NCBI RefSeq assembly: GCF_000284115.1
Contig: NC_017080.1
Location: 930,001-962,000, forward strand
Source: Phycisphaera mikurensis NBRC 102666
GTDB taxonomy: Bacteria; Planctomycetota; Phycisphaerae; Phycisphaerales; Phycisphaeraceae
Reading direction: 5' to 3'
Length of the DNA: 32,000 bases
Shown here: one piece after another, positions 4,581 through 31,845 of the stretch
Layout: each line of letters starts with the position of its first letter
Numbering within the stretch: position 1 is the first letter of the stretch
Notes under the pieces: generated by a model
What the model was told of the DNA's origin: nothing
What the model saw: the letters and a program-made list of their open reading frames with translations, nothing else
Databases searched by the model: none
Program-made: the position numbers and the translations under genes

Positions 4581-4698
4581 CGGGCGGAGAGCGTAGAGCA
4601 GGCGGGAATACGCCCCAACGGAGCGGCGGGGCCGCCCGCACGCTCCCGGCGGGGCGGCGCCGCCGGTCCGCGGTCCAAGCGGCCACCTACCTTTCCCC

Positions 4699-9083: not shown

Positions 9084-10640
<1,557 letters not shown>

Positions 10641-11767: not shown

Positions 11768-11901
11768 TGCGGCGGCCGTCGCTCCTCCGACCGGGCGGAT
11801 CCGATCGGCGGGGACTCCCGTCTGAGGGCCCTTCTCCTGCCCCTCGGCCCTTCACCGCCGGGCGGATCTCGCCGCGACCGAGCTCCGATAGACTCCGGCC
11901 C

Positions 11902-12174
11902 ATGGCCGACACCCTTCACTGCACCATCACCACCCCGGAGGCTCAGGTCTTCGACGCCGCGGTCGCGTCGGTCACGCTTCCGTCCCACGACGGCCGCATC
12001 GGCGTGCTCAAGAGCCACGCCCCGATGATGGTGGAGCTCGGCGAGGGCGAGCTGTCGATCGAGCCGACCGACCGACACGAGGCCCGCACCCGCTACGCGA
12101 TCCAAGGCGGCTTCGCGCAGATCAAGAGCAACCAGCTGGTGGTGCTGACGGCGGCGGCCGAGCCCCGGGCCTGA
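11902..12174 (+). CDS. atpC: F-type ATPase epsilon-subunit-like protein, N-terminal beta-sandwich domain only
   Basis: 90 aa. LHCTITTPEAQVFDAAVASVTLPSHDGRIGVLKSHAPMMVELGEGELSI...GGFAQIKSNQLVVLTAAAE aligns by eye with E. coli AtpC residues about 5-88 ([39 protein letters not shown]...GGILEVQPGNVTVLADTA). No other atp gene is in the window. Confidence 0.75.
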   Translation: MADTLHCTITTPEAQVFDAAVASVTLPSHDGRIGVLKSHAPMMVELGEGELSIEPTDRHEARTRYAIQGGFAQIKSNQLVVLTAAAEPRA

Positions 12175-12334
12175 GCCCGAACAAGGAACGTCCGGGCGTC
12201 GCTGGGCGGGAGCGACGGCGGGCGCCCCAACCCGCCCCGGCGGGCCCTCGCCCGCTCCCACCGGCCACCCTCCCAGCCCCCGCCCCCCGCTCGCTCCGGC
12301 CGCGAACGCTCCGGGGAGCCGCCGCTGCGGCCGG

Positions 12335-12380
12335 CCGCGGATCGTCGGTCTTCTCCCGCGTTTCGGCTCGCGGTCCGCGG
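12335..12380. repeat. 46-bp palindromic element, copy D (one arm mismatch)
   Basis: CCGCGGATCG (12335-12344) and CGGTCCGCGG (12371-12380) are separated by 26 nt, the same geometry as copies A-C. It lies in the atpC-mrdA intergenic region. Confidence 0.55.
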
Positions 12381-12415
12381 GAATCGCCGCCCGCTCGCGT
12401 CGGTAGAGACTCCCC

Positions 12416-14902
12416 ATGCGGTCGTTCCTGCGGCAATCGGTCCCGAGCATGTTCCACCGGCGGCTGCTGCTGCTGGGCGGCCTCGCCGCCGCGGTGGCGG
12501 CCGTGCTGGTCGTGCAGGCGGCGCGGCTGGCCACGGGCGACTCGCACCGGGAGCTGCTCGGCGAGGCCGAGGCGGCCATGGTCCGCGAGAGCCTGATCCC
12601 CACCGTCCGCGGGCGGATCTACGACCGGCACGGGCGGGTGCTGGCCCGGGACGAGCCGGGGTGGTCGGTGGCGCTGCCCTACCCGCTGTTTACCGGGGGT
12701 TGGGCCTACGAGGCGGCGTCTCGGGCGGCCGAGGCCGAGGCGGGGCGGGCGTGGCGCTCGATGGAGGAGGCGGCGCGGGAGGCGGCGATCGGGCCGCGCC
12801 TGGACGGCTTCCGCCGGCAGCGCGACATGTTCTGGCTCGCGTTGCCGGACCTTCTCCGGGTCGAACCCGCCGAGCTGCTGGCCGCCCGCGATCGGGTGGT
12901 CAAGCGGGTCCGCACGGTGAAGGCGCAGTACATCGGGCGCCGCCTGCAGGAGCGCCGGCTCGAGACCGGCGACCCGGACGCCGACTGGGCGGACATCCAG
13001 GACGACACGGTCGCGGAGGAGCTGGCCACGCACGCCATCGCCACCGGCGTGCCCGACCCCGCGGCCACGCTGCTCAAGGAGCTCGCGGCCGATGCGCGGG
13101 CGAAGGCGGCCGCCGCGGACCGCGAGGGGGCGACCGCGGCCGAGCGGGCGGCCGCCGAGGAGACGGCCATCTGGCGGGAGGTGGGGGTGGAGCGGAGCCG
13201 CGACCGCGTCTACCCGCGAACGGTGGCGCGGGTGTCTCTGGATCGCTCCGGCTTCCCCTCGACGCTGGCGAGCGACGAGCCGGTCGAGGTGGAGCTGCCC
13301 GGCGTCGCGGTCCACGTGCTCGGGCAGCTCAAGCCGCTGTACGCCGGCGAGAAGCGGCTGGGGGCGCGGCCGCTGGCGATCCGGGGTGACCCCGTGTCCG
13401 GCGAGCCGGCGGACCTGGGCGGCTACCGCGTGGGGGACCCGGCGGGGCACTTCGGCGTGGAGCGGGTGCTCGAGCCGACGCTGCGCGGCCGCCGCGGCAA
13501 GGAGGTCCGCCGGCTGGAGGCCGACGCGGACGGCGTCAAGCGTGTCCTCCGCACCGAGCCCGTCGCCGGCGACCAGGTGACGCTGACCCTGGACATCGAG
13601 CTCCAGGCCTACCTCGAGGCCCTGCTGTCGCCCCGGCCGGACGTGGGGCTGATGACGGTGCAGCCGTGGCTGAAGGCGGAGGTCCCGCCGGGCACGGTGC
13701 TCACCGGGGCACTCGTGGTGATGGAGATCGCCACCGGCGAGATCCTCGGCGCCGCGACCGCGCCGGGCATGTCGCGGGCGGTGCTGGAGGAAGACCCCGC
13801 GGAGATCTACCAGGACTTCACCTTCGAGCCTTGGACCTTCCGCCCCACGGCGTACCCGCGGATGCCCGGTTCGACCATCAAGCCGCTTGTGCTCGCGGCG
13901 GCCATCACCGACGGCGTCTGGGGGGCGGACGAGGTGATGGACGTGTCCAGCGGCCACCTCTACCCGAAACAGCCGAATCTCTTCCGCGACTGGTGGCAGC
14001 GGCAGCCCGGGGGCGCCGGCCTCGTCACGACGCTCGACGGGCCGACCGCGATCAAGATCAGCGGGAACGTCTTCTTCGGGCGACTGGCGCAGAAGCTCGG
14101 GCCCCAGCGGCTCGCCTGGTGGTACCGCCAGCTGGGCGTCGGGGAGAAGGCCGACCTGCCCGTGCGGGAATCGGCCGGCTCGCTCTTCGACCCGCTCGCG
14201 GCCGACGCCGGGCCGCAGGCCGACAACACCGCCATCGGCCAGGGCCAGCTGAGCATGACGCCGGCCCAGCTCGCCGCCGCTCACGCGACGCTCGCCCGCG
14301 GCGGCCGCCACCTGCCCCCGAAGCTAGTCCGCGGCCTGCCGGCGCGCCCGCACGAGGGCGCGTCGGTGCGCTTCAGCACCGAGGCGGTGCAGGCGGCGCT
14401 CCTGGGGATGTGGAAGTCGGGCAACGAGGCGAAGGGCCGCGACCTCACCTACGGCACCACGTACCAGTTCTCGCTGGGCGGGGGCGCGTACCACAGGATC
14501 TTCAGCGTCAGCAACGTGAACGTCTTCGCCAAGAGCGGCTCGGCGCAGGTCGACGGCGGCACCGTGGAAAAGTTCGACGAGGACGGCGACGGCCTCGTCG
14601 ACCGCTTCGGCGAGGTCGTGCGGAGCGGGGCGCACGGCTGGGCGGTGGCGCTGGTCGGTCCCGTCGACCACGAGCCGCTGTACGCGATCGTCGCGCTCGC
14701 CGAGCACGGCTACTCGGGCGGCACGTCGGCCGGCCCGATGGTGAACGAGGCCATCGTGGCGCTGCAGAAGTTCGGGTACCTCCCGCCCGGCGCCTCGGGC
14801 CCGGGCGCCGCCGCCGACGGCCCGCAGCGGGTGTCCTTCCCGGAGGCCGGAGACGAGCCCGCCGACCCGGCGCCGGCCGCGCTCGCGAGCTCGGGTCGCT
14901 GA
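12416..14902 (+). CDS. mrdA: penicillin-binding protein 2 (peptidoglycan D,D-transpeptidase)
   Basis: N-terminal TM anchor (RRLLLLGGLAAAVAAVLVV), an SxxK active site in PGSTIKPLVLAAAI, an SxN-like ISGN motif, and a K[ST]G motif as KSGSAQ. It is directly followed by rodA. At 828 aa it is long for a PBP2. Confidence 0.9.
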   Translation: MRSFLRQSVPSMFHRRLLLLGGLAAAVAAVLVVQAARLATGDSHRELLGEAEAAMVRESLIPTVRGRIYDRHGRVLARDEPGWSVALPYPLFTGGWAYEAASRAAEAEAGRAWRSMEEAAREAAIGPRLDGFRRQRDMFWLALPDLLRVEPAELLAARDRVVKRVRTVKAQYIGRRLQERRLETGDPDADWADIQDDTVAEELATHAIATGVPDPAATLLKELAADARAKAAAADREGATAAERAAAEETAIWREVGVERSRDRVYPRTVARVSLDRSGFPSTLASDEPVEVELPGVAVHVLGQLKPLYAGEKRLGARPLAIRGDPVSGEPADLGGYRVGDPAGHFGVERVLEPTLRGRRGKEVRRLEADADGVKRVLRTEPVAGDQVTLTLDIELQAYLEALLSPRPDVGLMTVQPWLKAEVPPGTVLTGALVVMEIATGEILGAATAPGMSRAVLEEDPAEIYQDFTFEPWTFRPTAYPRMPGSTIKPLVLAAAITDGVWGADEVMDVSSGHLYPKQPNLFRDWWQRQPGGAGLVTTLDGPTAIKISGNVFFGRLAQKLGPQRLAWWYRQLGVGEKADLPVRESAGSLFDPLAADAGPQADNTAIGQGQLSMTPAQLAAAHATLARGGRHLPPKLVRGLPARPHEGASVRFSTEAVQAALLGMWKSGNEAKGRDLTYGTTYQFSLGGGAYHRIFSVSNVNVFAKSGSAQVDGGTVEKFDEDGDGLVDRFGEVVRSGAHGWAVALVGPVDHEPLYAIVALAEHGYSGGTSAGPMVNEAIVALQKFGYLPPGASGPGAAADGPQRVSFPEAGDEPADPAPAALASSGR

Positions 14903-20709: not shown

Positions 20710-21120
20710 TCAATCCGTTGCAAAGTACCGCTGCAGCAGCATGACCGCCGCCAGTCCGTCCCGCCGCGTCTTCTTCTGCTTGTGCGTCAGCCCCGACCGG
20801 CCCATCGCCTCGTCCGCTTCCAGCGAGCTCCGCCGCTCGTCCACCAGGTGCACCGGCACGCCGAACCGTTCCGCCGCCTCCGCCGCGAACGCCCGCGCCC
20901 GCCTCGCCGCCTTGCCCGCCGACCCGTCCATGTGCAGCGGCAGGCCCAGCACCAGCGCGTCGGGCGTCTCCCGCTCGACGATCCGCGCGAGCCGCGTCCA
21001 ACGCTCCGGCCCCGGCGGCGCCACGACCGCCGGCAGCGGCGAAGCGATCCCCGTCGCGTCGTCCCCCAGCGCCAGCCCCGTCCGCTTGTTGCCGAGGTCG
21101 ATGGCGAGGAAGCGCGGCAC
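20710..21120 (-). CDS. ruvX: Holliday-junction resolvase-like nuclease RuvX (YqgF)
   Basis: 136 aa from GTG (complement of 21118-21120): VPRFLAIDLGNKRTGLALGDD...LVLGLPLHMDGS...VHLVDERRSSLEA...QKKTRRDGLAAVMLLQRYF. The YqgF signature D-x-G-x-K-R-x-G is at the N-terminus. The longer 711-aa track ORF is a chimera with the antisense of the RHS gene. Confidence 0.88.
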   Translation of the reverse strand: MPRFLAIDLGNKRTGLALGDDATGIASPLPAVVAPPGPERWTRLARIVERETPDALVLGLPLHMDGSAGKAARRARAFAAEAAERFGVPVHLVDERRSSLEADEAMGRSGLTHKQKKTRRDGLAAVMLLQRYFATD

Positions 21121-21168
21121 CGCGGAGACGGTATCCGCGGCGTTGAAGGTCCATTCGAAAGGGTAGAG

Positions 21169-23313
21169 TTGCGACACCTTCTCCCGGCCATCCTCGCCCT
21201 CCGGCCGCTCGTGATCACCCACACCGACATCCGCCGCCACCGGCCCACGCTCTTGATCGGCCCGCGGGTGGGGGCCCAGGGCGAGCCCTTCCGCGCCACC
21301 TTCAGCATCACCCGCAGCACCGCGTCGCGAAACCACGACATGCTCAAGTTCCTCTTCGGGGTGGAAGAGGAAGGCACGTACAACGTCCTCACGCTCTCGC
21401 ACAAGGGCGGGAGCCCGAGCGCGCCTTCGGGCAGCCGGCTCGACGACGCCTCCGGCGTGGGCGTCGCCGGCACCCGCACCGCCGCCAACGCCGTCAGCAC
21501 CCCGAACCCCAGCGACCGGGTCTGGGTCCGCGTGGCCTCCGACGGCGCCGCCGTGACCGCCAAGATGCTCCTCGACAACACCGGCCCGCCCAGCGAGGCC
21601 GCCTGGTCCGGCGCCGGCGAGGCGTACCGCAGCACCGCCTTCCCGATGAACGGCGGGCGGGTGGGCTTCCGCTCTGCCTACGGCGTCGCCTTCGTCCGGC
21701 ACTTCACCCTCGAGACCGACCACGACAACGACGGTTCCTGGACCCGCGAGTACGACGCCCTCATCGACCACCCCGGCGGCCACGCCACGATCCGGTACGA
21801 GCACGACGCCGCGGGCAACCTCACCTTCGACGGCGTGTTCTCCTACGCCTACGACGCGGTCGCCGATCCAGGCGACCGAAGGCTGGCGCCTCCGAGGCTG
21901 AAGCCAGCTTCCTTGTCCATCCGGCTGGTCAGCGTCCGCAACGCCTACCGCGAGGCTGGTGCCAGCCAGAGCGTGCAGGAGGGCTCGGTCGTCACCGCCA
22001 TGGCCTACGACGGCCTGGGCCGGCGGACCACCCGAGCCGTCCAGAACAGCGGGAACCTCGACTTCACCCACCACGCCTACTTCGACGGCCAGCGGCAGGT
22101 CGAGGAACGCAACGGCTCGGACCTGGTGCTCCGTCAGCAGGTCTGGGGCCTGGACTACATCGACGAGCTGGTGAGCACTTCGCTGAACTTCGACCCCACC
22201 GACACCACCGAGAGCGTCTGCGAGCGGCACTTCTACGCCCTCCACGACAGCCAGTACAACATCCTGGGCATCGTCGCCGCCGGCGGCGCCCTGGTGGAGC
22301 GATACGAGTACACGCCCTACGGACAGAGGCAGGTCTACGGGAGTGGGTGGCTGCCATACGATCTCGATGGCAACGGGGTGGTGGATCAAGCAGACGCCGA
22401 CGTCGTAGACGCAGGGCGGTACGGGCCCGACGATTCGTCTTCCTACATCGCGGATGTATCGGGAGACGGTCAGGTCGACGACAACGACTACTACCCCGTC
22501 CTCTACAGCGGAGCCTACCCGTTCCTGGGGCTCCAGATCCTGCCGCAGAACGACCTGAAGGCGTACACACCGCGGCTGGGTAGCTTCGCCGGTCGTCTCG
22601 CCTCCGAAGGTGCCGGCAGCAGCTTGAACCCCTTCGGCCACCAGGGCCTCCACCACGACGAGGCCACCGGGCTCATCTACAACCGGGCACGCATGCTCCA
22701 CCCCACGCTGGGCAGGTTCGTGCAGAGAGATCCGCTGGGGTATGTGGATGGGGCCAATCAATATCTCTACCACCCAGCTCTTCATGGAGGAACTGATTGG
22801 ACAGGGACCCGGCGAGTTCCTCCATATTCGGTGCCTACTTACCAAGCGAGATCTACGGCGGAGGATGCTGGAAGCAATTCACTTCAGCCAGGTGAGTGGG
22901 GAGGTAATCGAGACGCAATCCGTCACTGCGTTCTGATGTGCGAGTTAGCGAAAGACTTCGGGCGTCAGGGTGCTATCGACTTCGGACATGCGTACGAGAC
23001 GGATAACGAGCCGACTCTGCCCGACGGAGCTCGAGGCGTTCAAGGATACGCAGACTATACAGCTTTTGTGCTACACGATCGGGCGATGGATCTACACAAC
23101 AATGAGGTGGGAGCTTCGATTGGCGAGGCTCTGAGTGACCTGCAAGACCTCGTTCCGGAATGCAGCCGAACTTGCGCAGACGCATGTGCCGATGCCTTGG
23201 ACAACGGAGCCCTGCTCGTAAATGTAGAAAACGGATATAAACTAGACTGGCATCCTGGTCAAGCTCCATGGGAACGTCCTCCGACGATTCCCGATGTTAA
23301 TGTGTTCCCCTAA
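21169..23313 (+). CDS. RHS/YD-repeat polymorphic toxin, copy 1 (jelly-roll-like N-domain, YD repeats, dockerin/EF-hand-like insert, RHS core end, unique C-terminal domain CT1)
   Basis: YD repeats are present (YEHDAAGNLTFDG, YAYDA, MAYDGLGRRTTR, YEYTPYGQ), and the core terminus is GLIYNRARMLHPTLGRFVQRDPLGYVDGANQYLY. After about 22740 GC drops sharply and the sequence is unrelated to copy 2. The start is uncertain: TTG 21169 (used), GTG 21211 or ATG 21340. The frame stays open upstream only because it is antisense to ruvX. Confidence 0.8.
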   Translation: MRHLLPAILALRPLVITHTDIRRHRPTLLIGPRVGAQGEPFRATFSITRSTASRNHDMLKFLFGVEEEGTYNVLTLSHKGGSPSAPSGSRLDDASGVGVAGTRTAANAVSTPNPSDRVWVRVASDGAAVTAKMLLDNTGPPSEAAWSGAGEAYRSTAFPMNGGRVGFRSAYGVAFVRHFTLETDHDNDGSWTREYDALIDHPGGHATIRYEHDAAGNLTFDGVFSYAYDAVADPGDRRLAPPRLKPASLSIRLVSVRNAYREAGASQSVQEGSVVTAMAYDGLGRRTTRAVQNSGNLDFTHHAYFDGQRQVEERNGSDLVLRQQVWGLDYIDELVSTSLNFDPTDTTESVCERHFYALHDSQYNILGIVAAGGALVERYEYTPYGQRQVYGSGWLPYDLDGNGVVDQADADVVDAGRYGPDDSSSYIADVSGDGQVDDNDYYPVLYSGAYPFLGLQILPQNDLKAYTPRLGSFAGRLASEGAGSSLNPFGHQGLHHDEATGLIYNRARMLHPTLGRFVQRDPLGYVDGANQYLYHPALHGGTDWTGTRRVPPYSVPTYQARSTAEDAGSNSLQPGEWGGNRDAIRHCVLMCELAKDFGRQGAIDFGHAYETDNEPTLPDGARGVQGYADYTAFVLHDRAMDLHNNEVGASIGEALSDLQDLVPECSRTCADACADALDNGALLVNVENGYKLDWHPGQAPWERPPTIPDVNVFP

Positions 23314-23389
23314 GAGGTCTTGTAAGTTCCGTGCAGGCGATTGGCCTAACGTAATCCTATGGCAGGATTCAAAAGTTTGGATGTAAGGC

Positions 23390-24001
23390 ATGATGTTTTT
23401 TAAAGGGGTCAGGGCAACGCTTGTACTTGCGGTTATATCTATCTGTGTTGCTGGAACAGCCTCGGTTTCCTGTTCCAATCATGGCGATCGCGCATCCGAG
23501 GCGAAGATTGATGTGACCACGAAGCGGGAAGATTGGAGCAGTTGGGCTCTACGCAGGGTTGTGATCGCGTCAGAGACCCCGGTTGACGAATCGGGCTCTG
23601 TCGGTTTCTCTATCGTGCAACCACGCAATTCTTTTGCACCTCAGGGCATAGGGATCTATCGTAGATTGAGCTGGGCGGAAAGCTACGAGAACCTCAGGAT
23701 TTTTGCAGCTATCAAGACTTACCGGGACTTGCGGTTGTCGCTCCATGTTGAAGGTGACCGAGATTCCGAGGGCGAGTATGGCAGCCTTGATTTTCGGATC
23801 CCTTTCCAGTGGGGATCAGCAGTGGTTGAAGTTAAGCGTGAGGAACGTTTAATCCTCGCTGAGTGCCAGGTCCCTTCTGATGTAGAATCCGTACTATTAT
23901 GGCTCCAGGTGGAAGACCCACAACCTGCAACATCGCCCAAACTAAACCAGAACGAGGGCGTTGACTTCGCCATATCCGGTCTAATCATCGTACTTGACTA
24001 A
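23390..24001 (+). CDS. secreted beta-rich protein, candidate cognate immunity for CT1
   Basis: 203 aa in AT-richer DNA contiguous with CT1, starting 76 nt after the RHS1 stop. It has an N-terminal signal peptide (MMFFKGVRATLVLAVISICVAGTASVSC). I recognise no family. The immunity role is inferred from position only. Confidence 0.5.
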   Translation: MMFFKGVRATLVLAVISICVAGTASVSCSNHGDRASEAKIDVTTKREDWSSWALRRVVIASETPVDESGSVGFSIVQPRNSFAPQGIGIYRRLSWAESYENLRIFAAIKTYRDLRLSLHVEGDRDSEGEYGSLDFRIPFQWGSAVVEVKREERLILAECQVPSDVESVLLWLQVEDPQPATSPKLNQNEGVDFAISGLIIVLD

Positions 24002-24147
24002 GAAGCTGTTTCAAAACTCCCCATGATCATCCGCCGGTGGCAGATGGTGAGGCAGGCGAGGTCGTGCATGCCCTGAAAGTGGCTTCCGGTCCGCTCGTAG
24101 CAGACCTTCAACCGGCGGTCGTTCCCGAACCATGCCAATGCCCGCTC
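23998..24147 (-). pseudogene. 3'-terminal remnant of an IS5-family (IS427/IS1031-like) DDE transposase gene
   Basis: The minus-strand translation PERALAWFGNDRRLKVCYERTGSHFQGMHDLACLTICHRRMIMGSFETAS* matches the conserved C-terminus of IS5-family transposases (ER..aW....RRL...YE......f..lA...i..RR). Everything upstream is replaced by the GAAGCAAGGGG array. A possible IS end, GAAGCTGTTTCAAAAC, follows a CTAA at 23998-24001. Confidence 0.6.
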
Positions 24148-24149
24148 GG

Positions 24150-24241
24150 GAAGCAAGGGGTCAGGGAAGCAAGGGGAAGCAAGGGGTCAGGGAAGCAAGG
24201 GGGAAGCAAGGGGAAGCAAGGGGTCAAGCCCCTTGCAGAGG
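24150..24241 (+). repeat. iterated half-hairpin array plus terminal complete hairpin (left end of RAYT element 1)
   Basis: Six head-to-tail copies of GAAGCAAGGGG, with or without TCAG, at 10-17 bp periodicity. The last copy is completed to GGAAGCAAGGGG-TCAAG-CCCCTTGCAGAGG (24212-24241). That hairpin has an 8-bp stem at 24216-24223 / 24229-24236 and a 5-nt loop. Confidence 0.85.
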
Positions 24242-24306
24242 TGCTATGGTGCCGTCGCCGAGTCGCCTCCCGCTCCCCCGCTCTCTCGCACCCTCAACCG
24301 CTCCCC

Positions 24307-25398
24307 ATGGCCCGCTCCCTCCGCCACCAGATCCTGCCTGATGCCACCTGCGTGGTTCATGTTGTGTCGAAGATCTCGCGGTCGCTTCACTTGCTGGTGC
24401 CCGATGAGGATCGTGCCGGCGCCGGCGCCGGTGCCGTTGGCGACGCGGCCGAGCACCCCGACCTCCGCAAGGAGCTGCTGCTGCAGCGGCTGGAGACGCT
24501 GGCGGAGCAGACCTCGATCTCGGTGTGCGGGTTTGCGGTGATGGGCAACCACGTCCACCTGATCCTGCGGCGGGACAAGGAGGAGGCCGCGGCGTGGCCG
24601 GCGGCGGAGGTGGTGGGGCGGTGGCTTGCGTTGCACCCCAAGCGCAACCGGGCGCGGCAGCCGGTGGAGACGCCGGAGGAGGACGTGGCGGCGATGGTGG
24701 CGGACGAGGGACTGGTGGAGACGCTGCGTGCGAAGCTGTCGAGTGTCTCGCAATTCATGAAGGACCTCAAGCAGCGGACCGCGGAGGCGGTGAACAAGCT
24801 GGAGGGCCGCGGCGGGCGGCTCTGGGACGGGACGTTCAAGAGCAAGCTGATCGAGGACCAGGAGCAGCTGGTGGCGACGATGGTGTACGTGGACCTCAAC
24901 CCCTTCGCGGCGGGGGTGTGCGAGACGCCCGAAGAGGGCCGCCACACCTCGCTGGCGGGGCGGCTGGGGCGGGACGAGCCGGCGGGGGAGGTGAGCAAGC
25001 CCGCAGGATCCGCGGACCGCGACCGGGAGGAGGCCTCGGAGGCCGGCGGTCCGCGGGTTGGTCTGCGGTTGCCACGGCGGAGGTCCAGCGGGGCCTGGCT
25101 GCGGCCGCTGGACGAGTCGGCCAAGCGGGCGCGGGAGCGTGGGCAGCGGCGGCACCCGCGAGGGCGGGCGGGGCTCGAAGCGGAGGCCGCGGGAACGGTG
25201 AGCCCGGGGCTGTCGCTGCGGGTCTACCTGCGGATCCTCGACGCGGTCAGCCGCAAGCTGCGGGCGGGCAAGAAACGCCTTGCGGCGGGCATGGCAAGCG
25301 TCTTCGAGCGGCTGAACCTGGACGCCGACGCGGTGGTCGGGCGGGTGCTGGCGATGGCGCAGCGGGACGGGCTGGCGGTGGCGGGCCGGGGCAGCTGA
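24307..25398 (+). CDS. REP-associated tyrosine transposase-like HUH protein (Y1 transposase / IS200-like, COG1943), copy 1
   Basis: 363 aa from MARSLRHQILPD. Family blocks are present: VVHVVSKISRSLHLLVPDEDR, the HUH motif in AVMGNHVHLILRR, GRLWDGTFKSKLIEDQEQL, and the catalytic-Tyr block MVYVDLNPFAAGV. A C-terminal extension of about 150 aa is Arg/Ala-rich. Confidence 0.8.
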   Translation: MARSLRHQILPDATCVVHVVSKISRSLHLLVPDEDRAGAGAGAVGDAAEHPDLRKELLLQRLETLAEQTSISVCGFAVMGNHVHLILRRDKEEAAAWPAAEVVGRWLALHPKRNRARQPVETPEEDVAAMVADEGLVETLRAKLSSVSQFMKDLKQRTAEAVNKLEGRGGRLWDGTFKSKLIEDQEQLVATMVYVDLNPFAAGVCETPEEGRHTSLAGRLGRDEPAGEVSKPAGSADRDREEASEAGGPRVGLRLPRRRSSGAWLRPLDESAKRARERGQRRHPRGRAGLEAEAAGTVSPGLSLRVYLRILDAVSRKLRAGKKRLAAGMASVFERLNLDADAVVGRVLAMAQRDGLAVAGRGS

Positions 25399-25818
25399 AC
25401 CGAGCTCGCCGGGGCCTGGCTACCTCGCAGGAGGCGTTGCTTCTTCCGAACGGATCCGCCGGGCTCGCCGGGGCCTACCCGGGCCTGCCCGGGCCTGCCC
25501 GGGCATCGCCGGGCGAGGGCTGTTGCGGTGACTGCGCCAGCCGCTTTGCAACGCAAGGCGGGCTCTTGTCCGGATCAGCGTCGATCCCCGAGGCGGCGTC
25601 GCCGGGCTCCGGCCCGCTCAGCGTTGCGAAGCGGCTGACGCTGTCAGCCCCGCCGGGATCTCGGTGGGCCTGCCTGGGAAGCTGCTCGGATCGTGGGGTG
25701 GCACACCGGAGATGCACGGCCTCGTGGTGATGGCGACGGATCGATCGGTGAACGCCGGGTTCTCGTTTCCGAGCCCGCGGCTCATCCGCTCGTCGGCCGG
25801 TTCCTTACCCTCTCCCTC

Positions 25819-26154
25819 ATGCCGTCCCGCCTTCCAGCAGCCCTGCTGCTCGTTCTCCCGCTGCTGCTCCCGGCCTGCGTTGCGCCCATGTACGTGAACA
25901 TCCCCTCGGAGGGCGGCATCGCGGCGAGCGATCCGAACAGCTTCAACGTGCGGGACGTGGTGGCCGACTCGATCGCGGCGGCGGTGGAGCGGGAGCCGCT
26001 GGAGGGCGTCTACGAGATCTTGCTGCCCGAGGGCACCACGCAGGGGCAGCATGGGGTGAGGCCCCTTGCGTTTGTGTCGCCGAGGTCGATGGCGAGGAAG
26101 CGCGGCACCGCGGAGACGGTATCCGCGGCGTTGAAGGTCCATTCGAAAGGGTAG
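25819..26154 (+). CDS. lipoprotein gene fragment fused across the module junction (probably truncated / chimeric ORF)
   Basis: MPSRLPAALLLVLPLLLPAC (signal peptide with lipobox) is followed by about 60 plausible residues. From about 26055 the ORF reads through the junction and across the antisense of the ruvX start fragment (..GVRPLAFVSPRSMARKRGTAETVSAALKVHSKG*). Confidence 0.35.
   Translation: MPSRLPAALLLVLPLLLPACVAPMYVNIPSEGGIAASDPNSFNVRDVVADSIAAAVEREPLEGVYEILLPEGTTQGQHGVRPLAFVSPRSMARKRGTAETVSAALKVHSKG
26079..26108 (-). pseudogene. ruvX 5' fragment (codons 1-10), identical to 21091-21120
   Basis: GCCGAGGTCGATGGCGAGGAAGCGCGGCAC is identical to the start of intact ruvX, and identity continues through the 48-bp spacer into RHS copy 2. 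To the left the sequence is unrelated and begins with CCCCTTGC (26062-26069). Confidence 0.85.
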
Positions 26155-26156
26155 AG

Positions 26157-28331
26157 TTGCGACACCTTCTCCCGGCCATCCTCGCCCTCCGGCCGCTCGT
26201 GATCACCCACACCGACATCCGCCGCCACCGGCCCACGCTGCTCATCGGCCCGCGGGTGGGGGCCCAGGGCCAGCCCTTCCGCGCGACCTTCAGCTTCACC
26301 CGCAGCACCGCCTCGCGGAACCACGACATGCTCAAGTTCCTCTTCGGGGTGGAAGAGGAAGGCACGTACAACGTGCTCGCATTCTCCCACAAAGGCGGGA
26401 GCCCGTGGGCGCCTTCAGGCAGCCGGCTCGAGGACGCCTCCGGCATCAGCGTCGCCGGCACCCGCACCGCCGCCCACGCCGTCAGCACCCCCAACCCCAG
26501 CGACCGGGTCTGGGTCCGCGTGGCCTCCGACGGCGCCGCCGTGACCGCCAAGATGCTCCTCGACAACACCGGCCCGCCCAGCGAGGCCGCCTGGTCCGGC
26601 GCCGGCGAGGCGTACCGCAGCACCGCCTTCCCGATGAACGGCGGGCGGGTGGGCTTCCGCTCTGCCTACGGCGTCGCCTTCGTCCGGCACTTCACCCTCG
26701 AGACCGACCACGACAACGACGGTTCCTGGACCCGCGAGTACGACGCCCTCATCGACCACCCCGGCGGCCACGCCACGATCCGGTACGAGCACGACGCCGC
26801 GGGCAACCTCACCTTCGACGGCGTGTTCTCCTACGCCTACGACGCGTGGAACCGGCTGGTCAGCGTCCGCAACGCCTACCGCGAGGCTGGTGCCGGCCAG
26901 AGCGTGCAGGAGGGCTCGGTCGTCACCGCCATGGCCTACGACGGCCTGGGCCGGCGGACCACCCGAGCCGTCCAGAACAGCGGGAACCTCGACTTCACCC
27001 ACCACGCCTACTTCGACGGCCAGCGGCAGGTCGAGGAACGCAACGGCTCGGACCTGGTGCTCCGTCAGCAGGTCTGGGGCCTGGACTACATCGACGAGCT
27101 GGTGAGCACTTCGCTGAACTTCGACCCCACCGACACCACCGAGAGCGTCTGCGAGCGGCACTTCTACGCCCTCCACGACAGCCAGTACAACATCCTGGGC
27201 ATCGTCGCCGCCGGCGGAGCCCTCGTGGAGCGGTACGAGTACACGCCGTATGGGCAGCGGCAGGTCTACGGGAGCGGAACCCTCAAGCTCGACGTCAACG
27301 GCGACGGGTCGCAGGACCAGGACGACACTGCGTTGGTGCAGGCGCTGGTGAACGATCCAACCCACCCCGACCACCACCTCGCCGACATTTACAGCGACGG
27401 GCAGATCAACCAGAACGACGTGAGCGCGATGGGCGAGATCTACGCCTTCGCCTACTACGACGGCCCCGAGGCCAACCACCTCGACCGCAGCGACCTCAAG
27501 CGTCTGACGCCCCGCCTCGGCACCACAAGGGGTCCCGCGTACGCAGCCTGGCTCACCGCTCCGGTCTACACCACGCTCAACCCCTTCGGCCACCAGGGCC
27601 TCCACCACGACGAGGCCACCGGGCTCATCTACAACCGGGCACGCATGCTCCACCCCACGCTGGGGAGGTTCGTGCAGAGAGACCCGCTGGGCAATCGCGT
27701 CTCATGGAGATCAGTGAGGCCGCGGTTTACCCGGAATCGAGAGGATGGAAGGACGATGATGGTTGTCTCTCGAGCTGAGGACATTGCTTACGTCCTGTAT
27801 CCACAACTACAATATTTTGCTGGGATGTCGCTGTACGAGTATGCGGCGAGTTCTCCGAGAAGCCTTGTTGATCCCACGGGCCTAGTACCGTGGCCCGCGA
27901 TCGTGGTGGGCACATGTTTAAATGAATCGACTGATCGATGCCAGATAATCTGGCACGATTACGATAATCCGAAGGATGGGGGCGATTTTGAGCTGCTGCG
28001 CCCCGGCGAAAGAAGCGGATCGAAGGATCGGTGCGACTACGTTTATCTGAATGGCGAGTGGTATAAGAATCGTTCTCGCTTGGTGTACGTAGCGGATTCT
28101 CCACTCGACCCATATGTGAAGTACAAGAAAACGCGGGGAGGGAAATATCTAAAGTCACCTTTATCTCCTGTAAGTCGCGCTCCGGATGGTCCTTGGTATC
28201 CAGGCAGAACTGGCAAGAAGCCCTCTAAGACTATCTGCGAAAAGTATTGCGAGTGCAATCTCTTGAGCGACCCCGCTCATCAAGGACCAGATTGTGATGA
28301 CGACTGCGTGAAGAGATGTGAGGATCTCTGA
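26157..28331 (+). CDS. RHS/YD-repeat polymorphic toxin, copy 2 (same body as copy 1, different dockerin-like insert, unique C-terminal domain CT2)
   Basis: About 95-100% identical to copy 1 over 26157 to about 27200 and again over 27579-27691 (..NPFGHQGLHHDEATGLIYNRARMLHPTLGRFVQRDPLG). It then enters AT-richer unique sequence containing a second core-end motif, GMSLYEYAASSPRSLVDPTGL, and a Cys-rich tail. Start options are TTG 26157, GTG 26199 and ATG 26328. Confidence 0.8.
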   Translation: MRHLLPAILALRPLVITHTDIRRHRPTLLIGPRVGAQGQPFRATFSFTRSTASRNHDMLKFLFGVEEEGTYNVLAFSHKGGSPWAPSGSRLEDASGISVAGTRTAAHAVSTPNPSDRVWVRVASDGAAVTAKMLLDNTGPPSEAAWSGAGEAYRSTAFPMNGGRVGFRSAYGVAFVRHFTLETDHDNDGSWTREYDALIDHPGGHATIRYEHDAAGNLTFDGVFSYAYDAWNRLVSVRNAYREAGAGQSVQEGSVVTAMAYDGLGRRTTRAVQNSGNLDFTHHAYFDGQRQVEERNGSDLVLRQQVWGLDYIDELVSTSLNFDPTDTTESVCERHFYALHDSQYNILGIVAAGGALVERYEYTPYGQRQVYGSGTLKLDVNGDGSQDQDDTALVQALVNDPTHPDHHLADIYSDGQINQNDVSAMGEIYAFAYYDGPEANHLDRSDLKRLTPRLGTTRGPAYAAWLTAPVYTTLNPFGHQGLHHDEATGLIYNRARMLHPTLGRFVQRDPLGNRVSWRSVRPRFTRNREDGRTMMVVSRAEDIAYVLYPQLQYFAGMSLYEYAASSPRSLVDPTGLVPWPAIVVGTCLNESTDRCQIIWHDYDNPKDGGDFELLRPGERSGSKDRCDYVYLNGEWYKNRSRLVYVADSPLDPYVKYKKTRGGKYLKSPLSPVSRAPDGPWYPGRTGKKPSKTICEKYCECNLLSDPAHQGPDCDDDCVKRCEDL

Positions 28332-28765
28332 TGCGGCCCGAACCTCAATCTTTAGCAGTTTCATTTTGGATGATGGTCGGCTGTCTCGCGGTTGTTATTC
28401 CATCAGCAATTTATAGCGGCCGAGAAGAACCTTTTTACGGCGTGCAGCCTGCGTGGGTATTCTTTTCTCAGATCGGTTCAGCAACCGGCGTCTTATTCGC
28501 GTCGCTCATCTCGGTCGTGTGCATTCCCTGGAGGCGCGTGTATGGAAACTATCGAGTACTTATCGCGTCAGTCGCTCTATGCATATCGAATCTCCTTGTA
28601 TCTGCATTAGGATGCTTCGTCGCTGCGACGTTTGTTGAGGACGTGAGGAACTATATTGCTATATTAGAGGCTCAAGATCTTACGTCGACCACCACGGAGA
28701 AGAAAGCTCATGGAGATCCGGGAGGGGAGAAACTCCCGCTTGTAGATATTGAGCGATCTCAGTAA
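28331..28765 (+). CDS. small polytopic membrane protein, candidate cognate immunity for CT2
   Basis: Its ATG overlaps the RHS2 stop (TGATG, 28329-28333). It is 144 aa with 3-4 hydrophobic helices (LAVSFWMMVGCLAVVIPSAIY, WVFFSQIGSATGVLFASLISVVCI, VLIASVALCISNLLVSALGCFVAATFV). Its low GC is contiguous with CT2. Confidence 0.6.
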   Translation: MRPEPQSLAVSFWMMVGCLAVVIPSAIYSGREEPFYGVQPAWVFFSQIGSATGVLFASLISVVCIPWRRVYGNYRVLIASVALCISNLLVSALGCFVAATFVEDVRNYIAILEAQDLTSTTTEKKAHGDPGGEKLPLVDIERSQ

Positions 28766-28775
28766 GCGAGCGTCA

Positions 28776-28874
28776 ATGCACAACCATACTTTCGACTTTG
28801 GCCTCCAATGGAGCCCCCGCCTCCTCCTCGGCGCCCTCACACTGCTTGCGCTCCCACCCGCGTCCGCCCAACTA
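28776..28874 (+). pseudogene. 5' fragment of a secreted-protein gene cut off by RAYT element 2
   Basis: MHNHTFDFGLQWSPRLLLGALTLLALPPASAQ looks like a signal peptide ending in an ASA-Q cleavage site. The reading frame then runs straight into the GAAGCAAGGGG array, which translates as nonsense (GSKGSRKQGVKEGEARGQ). Confidence 0.35.
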
Positions 28875-28980
28875 GGAAGCAAGGGGTCAAGGAAGCAAGG
28901 GGTCAAGGAAGGGGAAGCAAGGGGTCAGGAAGCAAGGCGGAAGCAAGGGCGGAAGCAAGGGGTCAAGCCCCTTGCAAGGG
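28875..28980 (+). repeat. iterated half-hairpin array plus terminal complete hairpin (left end of RAYT element 2)
   Basis: Six or seven copies of GGAAGCAAGG(G/C)G, with or without TCAA/TCAG, some degenerate (GGAAGGGG, GAAGCAAGGCG, GAAGCAAGGGC). The array ends in GGAAGCAAGGGG-TCAAG-CCCCTTGCAAGGG (28951-28980). Confidence 0.85.
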
Positions 28981-29045
28981 TGCTATGATGCTGTCGCTGC
29001 GTCGCCTCCCGCTCCCCCGCTCTCTCGCACCCTCAACCGCTCCCC

Positions 29046-30131
29046 ATGGCCCGCTCTCTCCGCCACCAGATCCTGCCTGACGCCACCTGCGTCGTCCATG
29101 TTGTGTCGAAGATCTCGCGGTCGCTTCACTTGCTGGTGCCCGATGAGGATCGTGCCGGCGCCGGTGCCGTTGGCGACGCGGCCGAGCACCCCGACCTCCG
29201 CAAGGAGCTGCTGATGCAGCGGATGCAGACCCTGGCGGAGCAGACCTCGATCTCGGTATGCGGGTTCGCGGTGATGGACAACCACGTCCACCTGATCCTG
29301 CGGCGGGACAAGGAGGAGGCCGCGGCGTGGCCGGCGGCGGAGGTGGTGGGGCGGTGGCTTGCGTTGCACCCCAAGCGGAATCGGGCGCGGCAGCCGGTGG
29401 AGACGCCGGAGGAGGATGTGGCGGCGATGGTGGCGGACGCGGGCCTGGTGGAGGCGCTGCGTGGGAAGCTCTCGAGCGTCTCGCAGTTTATGAAAGACCT
29501 CAAGCAGCGGACGGCCGAGGCGGTGAACAAGCTGGAAGGCCGCGGCGGGCGGCTCTGGGACGGGACGTTCAAGAGCAAGCTGATCGAGGACCAGGAGCAG
29601 CTGGTGGCGACGATGGTGTACGTGGACCTCAACCCCTTCGCGGCGGGGGTGTGCGAGACGCCCGAAGAGGGCCGCCACACCTCGCTGGCGGGGCGGCTGG
29701 GGCGGGACGAGCCGGCGGGGGAGGTGAGCAAGCCCGCAGGATCCGCGGACCGCGACCGGGAGGAGGCCTCGGAGGCCGGCGGTCCGCGGGTTGGTCTGCG
29801 GTTGCCACGGCGGAGGTCCAGCGGGGCCTGGCTGCGGCCGCTGGACGAGTCGGCCCAGCGGGCGCGGAAGCGTGGGCAACGGCGGCACCCGCGAGGGCGG
29901 GCGGGGCTGAAAGCGGAGGCCGCGGGAACGGTGAGCCCGGGGCTGTCGCTGCAGATCTACCTGCGGATCCTCGACGCGGTCAGCCGCAAGCTGCGGGCGG
30001 GCAAGAAACGCCTTGCGGCGGGCATGGCAAGCGTCTTCGAGCGGCTGAACCTGGACGCCGACGCGGTGGTCGGGCGGGTGCTGGCGATGGCGCAGCGGGA
30101 CGGGCTGGCGGTGGCGGGCCGGGGCAGCTGA
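29046..30131 (+). CDS. REP-associated tyrosine transposase-like HUH protein, copy 2
   Basis: 361 aa. It is near-identical to copy 1 except for a 6-nt indel (AGAGAGAV vs AGAGAV) and scattered substitutions. The HUH block (MDNHVHLILRR) and Tyr block (VYVDLNPFAAGV) are intact. Confidence 0.8.
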   Translation: MARSLRHQILPDATCVVHVVSKISRSLHLLVPDEDRAGAGAVGDAAEHPDLRKELLMQRMQTLAEQTSISVCGFAVMDNHVHLILRRDKEEAAAWPAAEVVGRWLALHPKRNRARQPVETPEEDVAAMVADAGLVEALRGKLSSVSQFMKDLKQRTAEAVNKLEGRGGRLWDGTFKSKLIEDQEQLVATMVYVDLNPFAAGVCETPEEGRHTSLAGRLGRDEPAGEVSKPAGSADRDREEASEAGGPRVGLRLPRRRSSGAWLRPLDESAQRARKRGQRRHPRGRAGLKAEAAGTVSPGLSLQIYLRILDAVSRKLRAGKKRLAAGMASVFERLNLDADAVVGRVLAMAQRDGLAVAGRGS

Positions 30132-30247
30132 ACCCGCAAGCGGCAGCGGCGGTCCCGCTGATCTACGACCGATCGCATCGCTGCCGGACCATCAAGCGTC
30201 ACCCGGAGCCCGATTCAGCGTTGGCGGAGAAGGTGGCAGCCACCAAG

Positions 30248-30330
30248 GGAAGCAAGGGGTCAAGCCCCTTGCAGAGGTGCTATAATGCCGTCGCCGAGTA
30301 GGAAGCAAGGGGTCAAGCCCCTTGCAGAGG
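30248..30330 (+). repeat. two orphan copies of the RAYT-element hairpin (no transposase gene)
   Basis: The 30-mer GGAAGCAAGGGGTCAAGCCCCTTGCAGAGG occurs at 30248-30277 and 30301-30330, and both copies are perfect. The first is followed by 21 nt of the RAYT leader (TGCTATAATGCCGTCGCCGAG). The second abuts the diverged ruvX fragment. Confidence 0.85.
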
Positions 30331-30333
30331 CCC

Positions 30334-30471
30334 GCGGGCCAGCCGCCGCCACCGCTCCGGACCCGGCGACGCGGCAGGTGCCGGCGGCGGGGAGGTGGTC
30401 CCGGGCGCGTCGTTGCCGAGCGCAAGGCCGTTCCGCCGGCCGCCGAGGTCGATCGCGAGGCAACGCGGCAC
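30334..30471 (-). pseudogene. diverged ruvX 5' fragment (codons 1-46)
   Basis: The minus-strand translation is VPRCLAIDLGGRRNGLALGNDAPGTTSPPPAPAASPGPERWRRLAR, against intact RuvX VPRFLAIDLGNKRTGLALGDDATGIASPLPAVVAPPGPERWTRLAR. My hand alignment gives 33/46 aa and about 103/138 nt. Homology stops at the hairpin copy ending at 30330. Confidence 0.75.
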
Positions 30472-30564
30472 GCGTGCGGGCGGAACGGGGCCGCCCGGGG
30501 ATCCTCTAGACTCCCGCAACCCGGGCCGGGCCGAGCCGGGCGCTGCCACCCCCACCGATCTTTT

Positions 30565-31845
30565 ATGCCTGAGAACTCCCCGCCGACCGCTCGCCTCGAC
30601 CTGCCCGAAGGGCCCATCGACCTGCCGATCGTTGTTGGCACCGCCGACGAGAAGTCGGTCGACATCTCGAAGCTCCGGGCCCAAACCGGCTACATCACGC
30701 TCGACGAGGGGTACCGCAACACGGGCAGCGTCAAGAGCGACATCACCTTCATCGACGGCGAGAAGGGCATCCTCCGCTACCGCGGCTATCCCATCGAGGA
30801 GGTGTGCGAGAACAGCTCCTTCATTGAGACGGCGCTGCTGCTGATCCACGGCGAGAAGCCGAGCAAGGAGTCGCTCTCGAGGTTCAGCGAGCGGCTGACG
30901 CACCACCAGATGATCCACGAGTCGGTGCGGCAGATGTTCGACGGCTTCCCGCCGACGGCGCACCCGATGGCGGTGCTCTCGTCGATGATCAACACGATCT
31001 CCTGCTTCCAACCGGCGATCATGAACATCGACGACGAGGAGGAGTTCGACGACACCGCGGCGATGCTGATCAGCAAGGTGCGGACGGTCGCGGCGGCCGC
31101 TTACAAGACCCAGATGGGGCATCCCATCATGTACCCGGATCCGAAGCTCACGTACTGCGAGAACTTCCTCCACATGATGTTCTCGCTCCCGCTGGGGCGG
31201 ATCGAGCCCGATCCGGACGTCGTGGAGGCGCTCAACCTCATCTTCATCCTGCACGCGGACCACGAACAGAACTGCTCGACGGCGACGGTGCGGATGGTCG
31301 GCTCCTCGGGGGCGAACCTCTTCGCCAGCTGCGCCGCCGGCGTCTGTGCCCTCTGGGGCCCGCTGCACGGCGGCGCGAACGTCGCGGTCATGAACCAGCT
31401 CGAGGAGATCCACAACAGCGACATCACGACGCGGAAGTACATCGACAACCTGAAGGCGACCAAGGGCAAGCTCTTCGGCTTCGGCCACGGCGTCTACAAG
31501 AGCTACGACCCGCGTGCGATGGTCCTCAAGAAGTCCGCCGACAAGGTGCTCGCGAAGCTCGGGGTCGACGATCCGCTGCTCGCGATCGCTCGCGAGCTGG
31601 AGGAGACGGCGCTCAACGACGAGTACTTCGTCAGCCGGAACCTCTATCCCAACGTCGACTTCTATTCCGGGATCCTCATGCGGGCGATGGGCATCCCCAC
31701 GAACATGTTCACGGTGATGTTCGCGATCGGCCGCATGCCCGGCTGGATCGCTCAGTGGTGGGAGGTCAACCAGCAGAAAAGCCGGATCTACCGGCCGCGG
31801 CAGGTCTACACCGGCGCCCGGGAGCGAGCCTGGAACGCCGGCTGA
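30565..31845 (+). CDS. gltA: citrate synthase (type II, hexameric-type length)
   Basis: 426 aa from MPENSPPTARLDLPEGPIDLPIVVG. Citrate synthase blocks are present: ILRYRGYPIEEL-like, LILHADHEQNCSTATVR, WGPLHGGANVAV, GFGHGVYKSYDPRA, and NVDFYSGI. The 81 residues upstream in the track ORF are not used. Confidence 0.93.
   Translation: MPENSPPTARLDLPEGPIDLPIVVGTADEKSVDISKLRAQTGYITLDEGYRNTGSVKSDITFIDGEKGILRYRGYPIEEVCENSSFIETALLLIHGEKPSKESLSRFSERLTHHQMIHESVRQMFDGFPPTAHPMAVLSSMINTISCFQPAIMNIDDEEEFDDTAAMLISKVRTVAAAAYKTQMGHPIMYPDPKLTYCENFLHMMFSLPLGRIEPDPDVVEALNLIFILHADHEQNCSTATVRMVGSSGANLFASCAAGVCALWGPLHGGANVAVMNQLEEIHNSDITTRKYIDNLKATKGKLFGFGHGVYKSYDPRAMVLKKSADKVLAKLGVDDPLLAIARELEETALNDEYFVSRNLYPNVDFYSGILMRAMGIPTNMFTVMFAIGRMPGWIAQWWEVNQQKSRIYRPRQVYTGARERAWNAG

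Follow-up and report, generated by a model that had tools for sequence, protein, structure and literature searches.

An orphan hairpin pair at the edge of an RHS toxin island in Phycisphaera mikurensis is better read as part of a tandem series of cut-off RAYT-like 5' units

The window, a stretch of 32,000 nucleotides of the P. mikurensis NBRC 102666 genome, contains between ruvX and gltA an island of ~9.2 kb that consists of two modules, each with an RHS toxin gene, an immunity gene, a hairpin array, and a RAYT-like gene. In the left part, the intact ruvX gene and an intergenic region of ~200 nt are followed by RHS toxin 1, immunity gene 1, an IS5 remnant, array 1, hairpin H1, and RAYT-like gene 1. 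The middle is made up of a 647-nt spacer with the 5' part of a lipoprotein gene, hairpin H*, a ruvX' stub of ~12 codons, and the intergenic region in a second copy. The right part runs from RHS toxin 2 through immunity gene 2, array 2, hairpin H2, and RAYT-like gene 2 to H3 and H4, with a 113-nt spacer between the end of gene 2 and hairpin H3. The features are:

20710-21120, minus strand: intact ruvX, GTG/VPRF start (Pfam RuvX 1e-37, TIGR00250 5e-32)
21340-23313, plus strand: RHS-core toxin 1 (TIGR03696 2e-13, DUF6973 5.5e-10); the core ends with RDPLG at ~22739 and is followed by a low-GC DUF6973 tip
23390-24001, plus strand: putative immunity gene 1, directly after the toxin tip (GC 0.52; no family match)
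24149-24211, plus strand: array 1 of cut-off hairpin units, restarting at GGAAGC (lengths 16, 10, 16, 11, and 10 nt)
24212-24241, plus strand: hairpin H1, exact 30-mer preceding RAYT-like gene 1
24307-25398, plus strand: RAYT-like gene 1 (HUH/Y1, 363 aa)
26049-26069, plus strand: degenerate hairpin H*, GCATGGGGTGAGGCCCCTTGC (18/21), at the joint with the internal ruvX' stub
26070-26106, minus strand: internal ruvX' stub, first ~12 codons (VPRFLAIDLGD...), then the copy of the ruvX-RHS intergenic region
26328-28331, plus strand: RHS-core toxin 2 (TIGR03696 6e-13, RHS_repeat), with a different low-GC tip past RDPLG
28331-28765, plus strand: putative immunity gene 2, membrane protein (no family match)
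28875-28950, plus strand: array 2 of cut-off hairpin units (lengths 16, 16, 6, 15, 11, and 12 nt)
28951-28980, plus strand: hairpin H2, two mismatches, located in the 3' flank
29046-30131, plus strand: RAYT-like gene 2 (HUH/Y1, 361 aa)
30248-30300, plus strand: orphan unit 1, consisting of H3 (exact 30-mer), 22 nt of leader including TGCTATAAT, and 1 nt
30301-30330, plus strand: orphan unit 2, H4 (exact 30-mer), cut 5 nt past the stem
30331-30468, minus strand: displaced ruvX' stub, codons 1-46, a decaying copy
30469-30564: native gltA-ruvX intergenic region of 96 nt, with a conserved motif TCTAGAGGATC common to the relatives
30565-31845, plus strand: citrate synthase gene gltA (Pfam Citrate_synt 5e-135), the ancestral divergent neighbour of ruvX

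For ruvX, a longer form of 155 aa with its start at 21177 is called by PGAP. Remnants of other genes are found in the left part and in the middle. A C-terminal piece of an IS5-family transposase (23998-24156, minus strand; NF033580, E 8.6e-6, profile positions 222-257 of 258) is located between immunity gene 1 and array 1, and the RAYT unit thus adjoins an older IS fragment. The lipoprotein gene fragment (25819-26048, plus strand), which comprises the signal peptide and the Cys residue and is cut at H*, appears to be foreign context brought in with module 1.

The 30-mer GGAAGCAAGGGGTCAAGCCCCTTGCAGAGG is present at 30248-30277 and, 53 nt apart from start to start, at 30301-30330 without any mismatch, confirming the two perfect repeats of the preliminary description. 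Further copies start at 24212 (exact) and 28951 (two mismatches). Every copy is on the plus strand, and the number expected by chance is zero (100 shuffles). The 21-nt core of the repeat folds as an 8-bp stem with a loop of 5 nt, and a fifth, degenerate core copy, again with a chance expectation of zero, matches at 18 of 21 positions (3 mismatches) at 26049-26069. An Rfam search of the window returned no family. The 22 nt following H3 (30278-30299, TGCTATAATGCCGTCGCCGAGT) are identical to the leader of RAYT-like gene 1 at 20 positions. Hence, the first orphan hairpin indeed carries a piece of RAYT leader and is cut by the second one, and the second is, as had been claimed, fused to codon 46 of ruvX, R46 being the last homologous residue when counted from the GTG (VPRF) start. 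The joint between H4 and ruvX' lies at 30330/30331, plus or minus 1 nt.

The displaced ruvX' stub, which reads VPRCLAIDLGGRRNGLALGNDAPGTTSPPPAPAASPGPERWRRLAR on the minus strand from 30468 down to 30331, shows 73-75% nucleotide identity to intact ruvX (73% over 141 nt). In three relatives, represented by loci L086, L087, and L088 with RuvX proteins 81-88% identical, gltA and ruvX lie divergently side by side with 92-120 bp between them, and the downstream genes (Dabb, GGDEF, CsrA, EF-Tu, L33, SecE, NusG) are shared among them. No RHS gene, RAYT-like gene, or hairpin was detected at the gltA-ruvX locus of these relatives. Since ruvX' stub, 96-nt spacer, and gltA follow each other in P. mikurensis as in this arrangement, the ~9.2 kb are placed between codon 46 of ruvX and the remainder of the functional gene. 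Judged from these comparisons, the H3/H4 pair is the right edge of a ~9.2-kb insertion that split the divergent gltA-ruvX pair. The comparison of the junction in related genomes, which had been proposed as a check, therefore revealed an island-free site in all three, and the earlier placement of the hairpin at the boundary of island and chromosome holds. In L086, an IS66-family element (10969-14531) is located just downstream of ruvX, indicating that the neighbourhood of this gene draws mobile DNA in other lineages too.

Both modules are organized like Rhs modules: the RHS-associated core extends up to DPxG, and a variable tip and the immunity gene come after it. Their cores are 96-98% identical at the nucleotide level, and identity stops at RDPLG (22739 and 27691); the low-GC toxin tips, of which the first corresponds to DUF6973 and the second is without family match, and the immunity genes are unrelated. 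The GC content of the tips and immunity genes (22740-24000 and 27690-28800) is ~52%, compared to 70-75% for the genome, which marks these parts as exchanged cassettes. A conserved core, unrelated low-GC tips and immunity genes, and the stacking of modules at one locus are known from Rhs cassette arrays. Unlike Rhs orphan modules, however, the two modules of the window are not 5'-truncated but complete, with their own upstream region and ruvX' stub, and each of them in addition carries a RAYT-like gene with hairpin arrays. The match between 21075-21858 and 26061-26846, which takes in the ruvX start and the intergenic region, amounts to 96.4%.

A simple tandem duplication of one module was considered and rejected. 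The joints fall at ruvX codons ~12 and 46, respectively, the spacers following the RAYT-like genes are unrelated (647 nt with the lipoprotein fragment versus 113 nt), and toxin and immunity parts differ. An integrase- or tRNA-targeted island was likewise rejected. No integrase family was found among the scanned island ORFs (two RHS, two immunity, two RAYT-like, and the lipoprotein fragment), and there is no tRNA gene at the site, the sole one of the window being located at 12300. The only recombinase-like genes of the island are the two RAYT-like HUH/Y1 genes.

These two genes are part of a repeated unit (24149-25401 and 28891-30134) that is 95.7% identical, has sharp boundaries, and is embedded in unrelated flanks. 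Residues H80 and H82 of the HUH motif and Y192, N196, and P197 of the Y-x3-NP motif are invariant in 28 homologues, across which NHVH, the W motif, and YVDLNP are also unchanged. An AlphaFold model of the gene 2 product (pLDDT 80, pTM 0.81) had as its top PDB match TnpA_REP of E. coli bound to a REP hairpin (4ER8_A, E 6.7e-5, target-normalised TM 0.67), followed by the TnpA proteins of ISDra2 and IS608. The proteins thus resemble RAYT/TnpA_REP of REPtrons in the HUH motif, in a single catalytic tyrosine within Y-x3-NP, and in the predicted fold, and their genes likewise adjoin a short hairpin that is rich in GC and has a 5' foot of 4 conserved nt. On the other hand, they are twice as long, with ~90 aa from HUH to the W motif and a C-terminal tail of ~150 aa, and they score below the curated thresholds of Pfam Y1_Tnp (PF01797; 22.9 and 20.9 bits, cutoff 23) and NCBIfam NF047646 (47.9 and 46 bits, cutoff 80). 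The hairpin foot is GGAA instead of GTAG. While RAYT/TnpA_REP genes are typically found once per genome, P. mikurensis harbors at least six RAYT-like genes, the two of the window and at least four diverged paralogues (P0004, P0006, P0014, P0020).

Motifs and architecture rather fit subclass 2.3 of TnpA_Y1, of which the proteins are putative members as judged from motifs and which was described from Chromatiales and Alteromonadales as NHYH proteins, multicopy, and without REP (Quentin et al. 2018, PMC6006769). The agreement with this subclass (PMC6006769) concerns YVDLNP, NHxH, a length of ~325-360 aa, a large beta3-alphaC insertion, an extended tail at the C terminus, and the presence of multiple diverged copies in one genome; the host from the Planctomycetota, the motif NHVH, and the clear cis repeats and stub arrays set the window proteins apart from it. 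Similarities to the IS200/IS605 family (IS608, ISDra2) include the Y1 HUH fold, a hairpin located upstream and overlapping the promoter region like a left end, hairpins that are all on one strand, and two 95.7% identical copies with sharp ends in different flanks. In contrast to these elements, the unit has neither a right-end hairpin nor a conserved target tetra- or pentanucleotide in the left flank, and tandem cut-off copies of a left end are not a described IS200/IS605 product. The conserved gene unit stops 3 nt past the stop codon, and no right-end hairpin was detected at its 3' end (structure z-scores 0.1 to 0.9). A variation of the protein family was noticed in homologue P0012, a fusion of a classical short RAYT domain with HWH motif and a long RAYT-like protein.

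The cis unit in front of the RAYT-like gene consists of GGAAGC, the 8-bp hairpin, and the leader. In the three repeat regions of the window, 14 units were parsed, and every one starts with GGAAGC (N|GGAAGC, the bar marking the left boundary). Their right ends vary: array units are 6, 10, 11, 12, 15, or 16 nt in length, H3 with its leader stub measures 53 nt, and H4 measures 30 nt. The orphan units therefore obey the rule of the arrays, in that the left end is fixed and only the right one varies, and they are better placed as the final members of a tandem series of 3'-truncated copies of the RAYT-like 5' unit. The left flanks of the units (GCTC, ACTA, CAAG, AGTA) revealed no conserved target or cleavage motif.

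The preliminary description had suggested, as one of two possibilities, that the pair is the scar of a third RAYT element or module. A third complete copy would have followed gene 2 and been deleted from leader position 22 onwards, and H4 would be the remnant of yet another copy. The 22 nt of genuine leader on H3 fit such a history, the 113 nt from gene 2 to H3 are a plausible intergenic distance, and tandem near-complete or whole copies of a RAYT-like gene are known from loci L071 and L043. Two independent deletions would be required, however, both ending exactly at the GGAAGC unit start; 12 shorter units that could not be scars of a gene follow the same boundary rule, and no 3' remnant of a third gene is present. 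We therefore consider a third copy improbable; the cut-off series accommodates the pair better.

The second proposal, hairpin-only derivatives of the REP or REPIN type which the RAYT-like enzyme mobilises in trans and spreads over the genome, with the pair as one such insertion, appears very unlikely. It would agree with TnpA_REP as the best structural match of the modelled protein and with other family members being flanked on both sides by repeated palindromes. Contrary to the inverted cognate REPs of RAYT systems, the five hairpins and 14 half-sites all have plus orientation; all hairpins are inside the island, and the check for inverted versus direct pairs revealed direct copies exclusively, without inverted doublets of the REP/BIME type. 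No copy with up to four mismatches was found in relatives or in ~52 kb of other P. mikurensis DNA, the latter being too little to decide on genome-wide dispersal. Exact searches of genome and metagenome collections with the core gave no match, a result that is uninformative on P. mikurensis itself since the window's own copies were not returned either. The closest subclass, 2.3, is also described as not REP-associated (PMC6006769).

Series of cut-off copies are not restricted to the window. In a systematic check, 25 of 74 related loci had extra partial 5' copies. A 100-nt unit comprising array, leader, and 10 codons is duplicated in L089, with one copy on each side of an RHS-immunity pair; in L036 and L014, stubs of 190 nt that end near RAYT codon 30 precede the full gene; the stub in L020 is ~340 nt in size, and those in L027, L043, and L048 are within 20-450 nt. 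The repeat sequences differ among genomes, some are not palindromic, and some stubs extend into the coding region. From these comparisons, the series of cut-off 5' copies is apparently a trait of the whole RAYT-like family. Duplicate whole units with sharp ends, 94-98% identical, were found in other Planctomycetota genomes and show that the family is mobile or duplicative. L036 contains in addition an IS66-family element (3035-6040, transposase ORF 3720-5741) inside the RAYT-like gene at about codon 30, and its position coincides with the end point of the two upstream 190-nt stubs.

How could such units arise? In the explanation we favour, with a confidence somewhat short of even, the RAYT-like enzyme would nick at the fixed left boundary (N|GGAAGC), the free 3' end would be extended for a short, variable length, often pausing at the hairpin, and the 5' end held by the enzyme would be rejoined, so that one cut-off unit is gained. 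Mis-joining or template switching at the same hairpin would then have produced the two joints between hairpin and ruvX' while RHS modules were acquired or duplicated beside ruvX. This sequence of events is preferred because a site-specific nick on the left, short extension, and rejoining would give a fixed restart with many lengths. The retained HUH and Y-x3-NP motifs and the TnpA_REP-like predicted fold count in its favour, and the lack of a right-end hairpin on the gene unit counts against it. So do loci L002, a P. mikurensis paralogue, and L003-L005, orthologue-like genes of related MAGs, which resemble static single-copy genes: they are located singly between housekeeping genes and have one or two upstream dyads each, without recurrence within 21 kb. 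The sampled neighbourhoods of P. mikurensis paralogues were L002 and the extension of L001.

Enzyme-independent recombination is the main competitor and, in our estimation, possible but on the unlikely side. Related donors would have contributed the RHS modules through one illegitimate or microhomology joint and a homologous crossover located in ruvX, in the intergenic region, or in the RHS core; as a variant, the modules would have arrived by Campbell-type integration of a circle carrying a 5' piece of ruvX. The palindrome would be a fragile, fork-stalling hot spot for joints and slippage arrays, and the RAYT-like gene a passenger and a conserved 3' homology arm for toxin swapping. Near-identical RHS cores (96-98%) and RAYT units (95.7%) enclosing unrelated tips and immunity genes are a classic footprint of homologous cassette exchange, and the missing conserved cleavage context also speaks for it. 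Simple slippage, however, should yield a single period and not units of 6-53 nt restarting at one fixed base, and stubs with fixed left and variable right ends, up to 450 nt in size and reaching into coding regions, recur in unrelated genomes. The position of the ruvX' joints, two out of two exactly at a hairpin, also counts against this competitor.

The joints deserve separate consideration, for nick, extension, and rejoining account for the joints between units, but not directly for those between a unit and ruvX'. Both ruvX' stubs abut a hairpin at a distance of 0 nt. If joints were random in 9 kb, both would fall at a hairpin with a probability of ~3e-5 (a rough estimate by hand), and the hairpin is thus mechanistically tied to the ruvX' joints. 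A motif shared by the two ruvX breakpoints was looked for and not found. At the internal joint, the 3' arm of the hairpin and ruvX codons 12-17 have a possible microhomology, GCCCC(T/G)T(G/C)CG, in common, and illegitimate recombination independent of the enzyme fits equally well here. Moreover, the island is bracketed by an imperfect ruvX duplication of 141 nt. The duplication points to a single crossover, or to an illegitimate event anchored by homology, with DNA that already bore a ruvX 5' end, and not to cut-and-paste HUH transposition.

The ages of stub and hairpins also bear on this question. Relative to the three relatives, the displaced stub has seven derived sites in common with intact ruvX, including the GTG start and "RLAR", and a distant foreign origin was rejected for this reason. 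Private changes number 15 in the stub, many of them at otherwise conserved residues, and 10 in intact ruvX. Together, the common derived sites and private changes mark the stub as old and decaying and as derived within the same lineage. In the H3/H4 block, only 2 of 82 nt deviate from the gene-linked unit 1, compared to a divergence of 27% in the stub next to it. Given the divergence between stub and intact gene, the binomial probability of so few differences is 4e-8; on the private changes of the stub alone (10.6%), it is ~0.01 (estimated by hand). The hairpins at the joint were therefore conserved, converted, or regenerated and are not a passive scar of the original event. With a stub that is much older than the hairpins, the joint seen today may be a later modification of the one left by the first insertion, and the state of the hairpins weakens the case that it records the chemistry of that insertion.

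In our rating, HUH involvement is likely for the making of the units and possible only for the making of the ruvX joints. The preliminary description had taken the placement of the hairpin as the strongest hint that hairpin-directed HUH chemistry, and not an integrase, made the junction. Its second half stands, as neither integrase nor tRNA was found, and the second hairpin-ruvX' joint inside the island speaks for the hairpin; the role of HUH chemistry at the junction is less secure in view of the missing conserved cleavage motif and of a stub older than the hairpins.

Among loci retrieved with the RAYT-like protein, L014, L036, L071 (a Desulfosudis MAG), and L100 also have a large RHS gene directly upstream of the RAYT-like gene and in the same orientation, not always accompanied by an immunity gene. 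L089 contains the closest foreign RHS homologue, 52% identical, and on either side of it are half-site arrays and leader stubs that belong to another RAYT subfamily. The regions with RHS, mostly with an immunity gene behind it, upstream of the RAYT-like gene are:

L089, 1-3751
L014, 65-6100
L036, 132-6993
L071, 44-6900
L100, 19-8885

The order RHS, immunity gene, RAYT-like gene is thus seen twice in the window and in L089, L014, L036, L071, and L100. These five unrelated RHS-RAYT loci span two phyla and at least two RAYT subfamilies. In ~4 of ~95 gene-centred loci for which the upstream flank covers 3 kb or more, an RHS gene is found beside the RAYT-like gene, always in the same order and orientation, and strong RHS matches in any other configuration around RAYT-like genes were not observed. 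The enrichment is a lead from small counts and only suggestive. Literature searches yielded no report of an RHS-RAYT association. It is conceivable, if quite improbable, that the RAYT-like enzyme and its hairpin unit constitute a dedicated platform for capturing, duplicating, or exchanging RHS toxin-immunity cassettes. Such a platform would be integron-like in function but would work by single-strand HUH chemistry, with the hairpin site immediately behind the immunity gene, and the hairpin-ruvX' joints, the stub arrays, and the RHS, immunity, RAYT-like order might then all be products of one system.

To our knowledge, no function has been assigned to the long subclass 2.3-like RAYT-like HUH proteins. 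Three points are new here: these proteins carry a defined cis unit, despite the report that they lack cognate repeats; the unit accumulates in tandem as cut-off copies sharing a single fixed boundary, from which a concrete nick site can be predicted; and the genes are repeatedly found immediately behind RHS toxin-immunity pairs. Should the joints be the work of the enzyme, polymorphic toxin loci would have a new route to grow and diversify, and this would be one of the rare cases in which a visible product in the genome can be assigned to a "domesticated" Y1 transposase. Otherwise, the locus retains its value as a clean, dated example of an RHS island that split the neighbourhood of an essential gene and whose empty site survives in relatives.

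Some further observations concern the regulation of the adjacent genes. A sigma-70 scan at the hairpins did not reveal a canonical promoter. The orphan leader stub reads TGCTATAAT at 30278-30286 on the plus strand, a perfect extended -10 sequence, at which the gene-linked copies read TGCTATGGT and TGCTATGAT. It faces gltA ~280 nt downstream and could be an extra promoter of the citrate synthase gene. In situ, the hairpin overlies the promoter region of the RAYT-like gene and may have the role of an operator. The 3' arm of the hairpin and its flank (GCCCCTTGCAGAGGT, window 24228-24245) resemble GCCCCTTGACAGGT in L005 (~9955-9975) and GCCCCTTCACAGGT in L071 (5905-5930), in both cases upstream of distant homologues. 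The versions from L005 and L071 contain a TTGACA-like -35 sequence, and the motif common to the three loci may be a conserved promoter or operator element.
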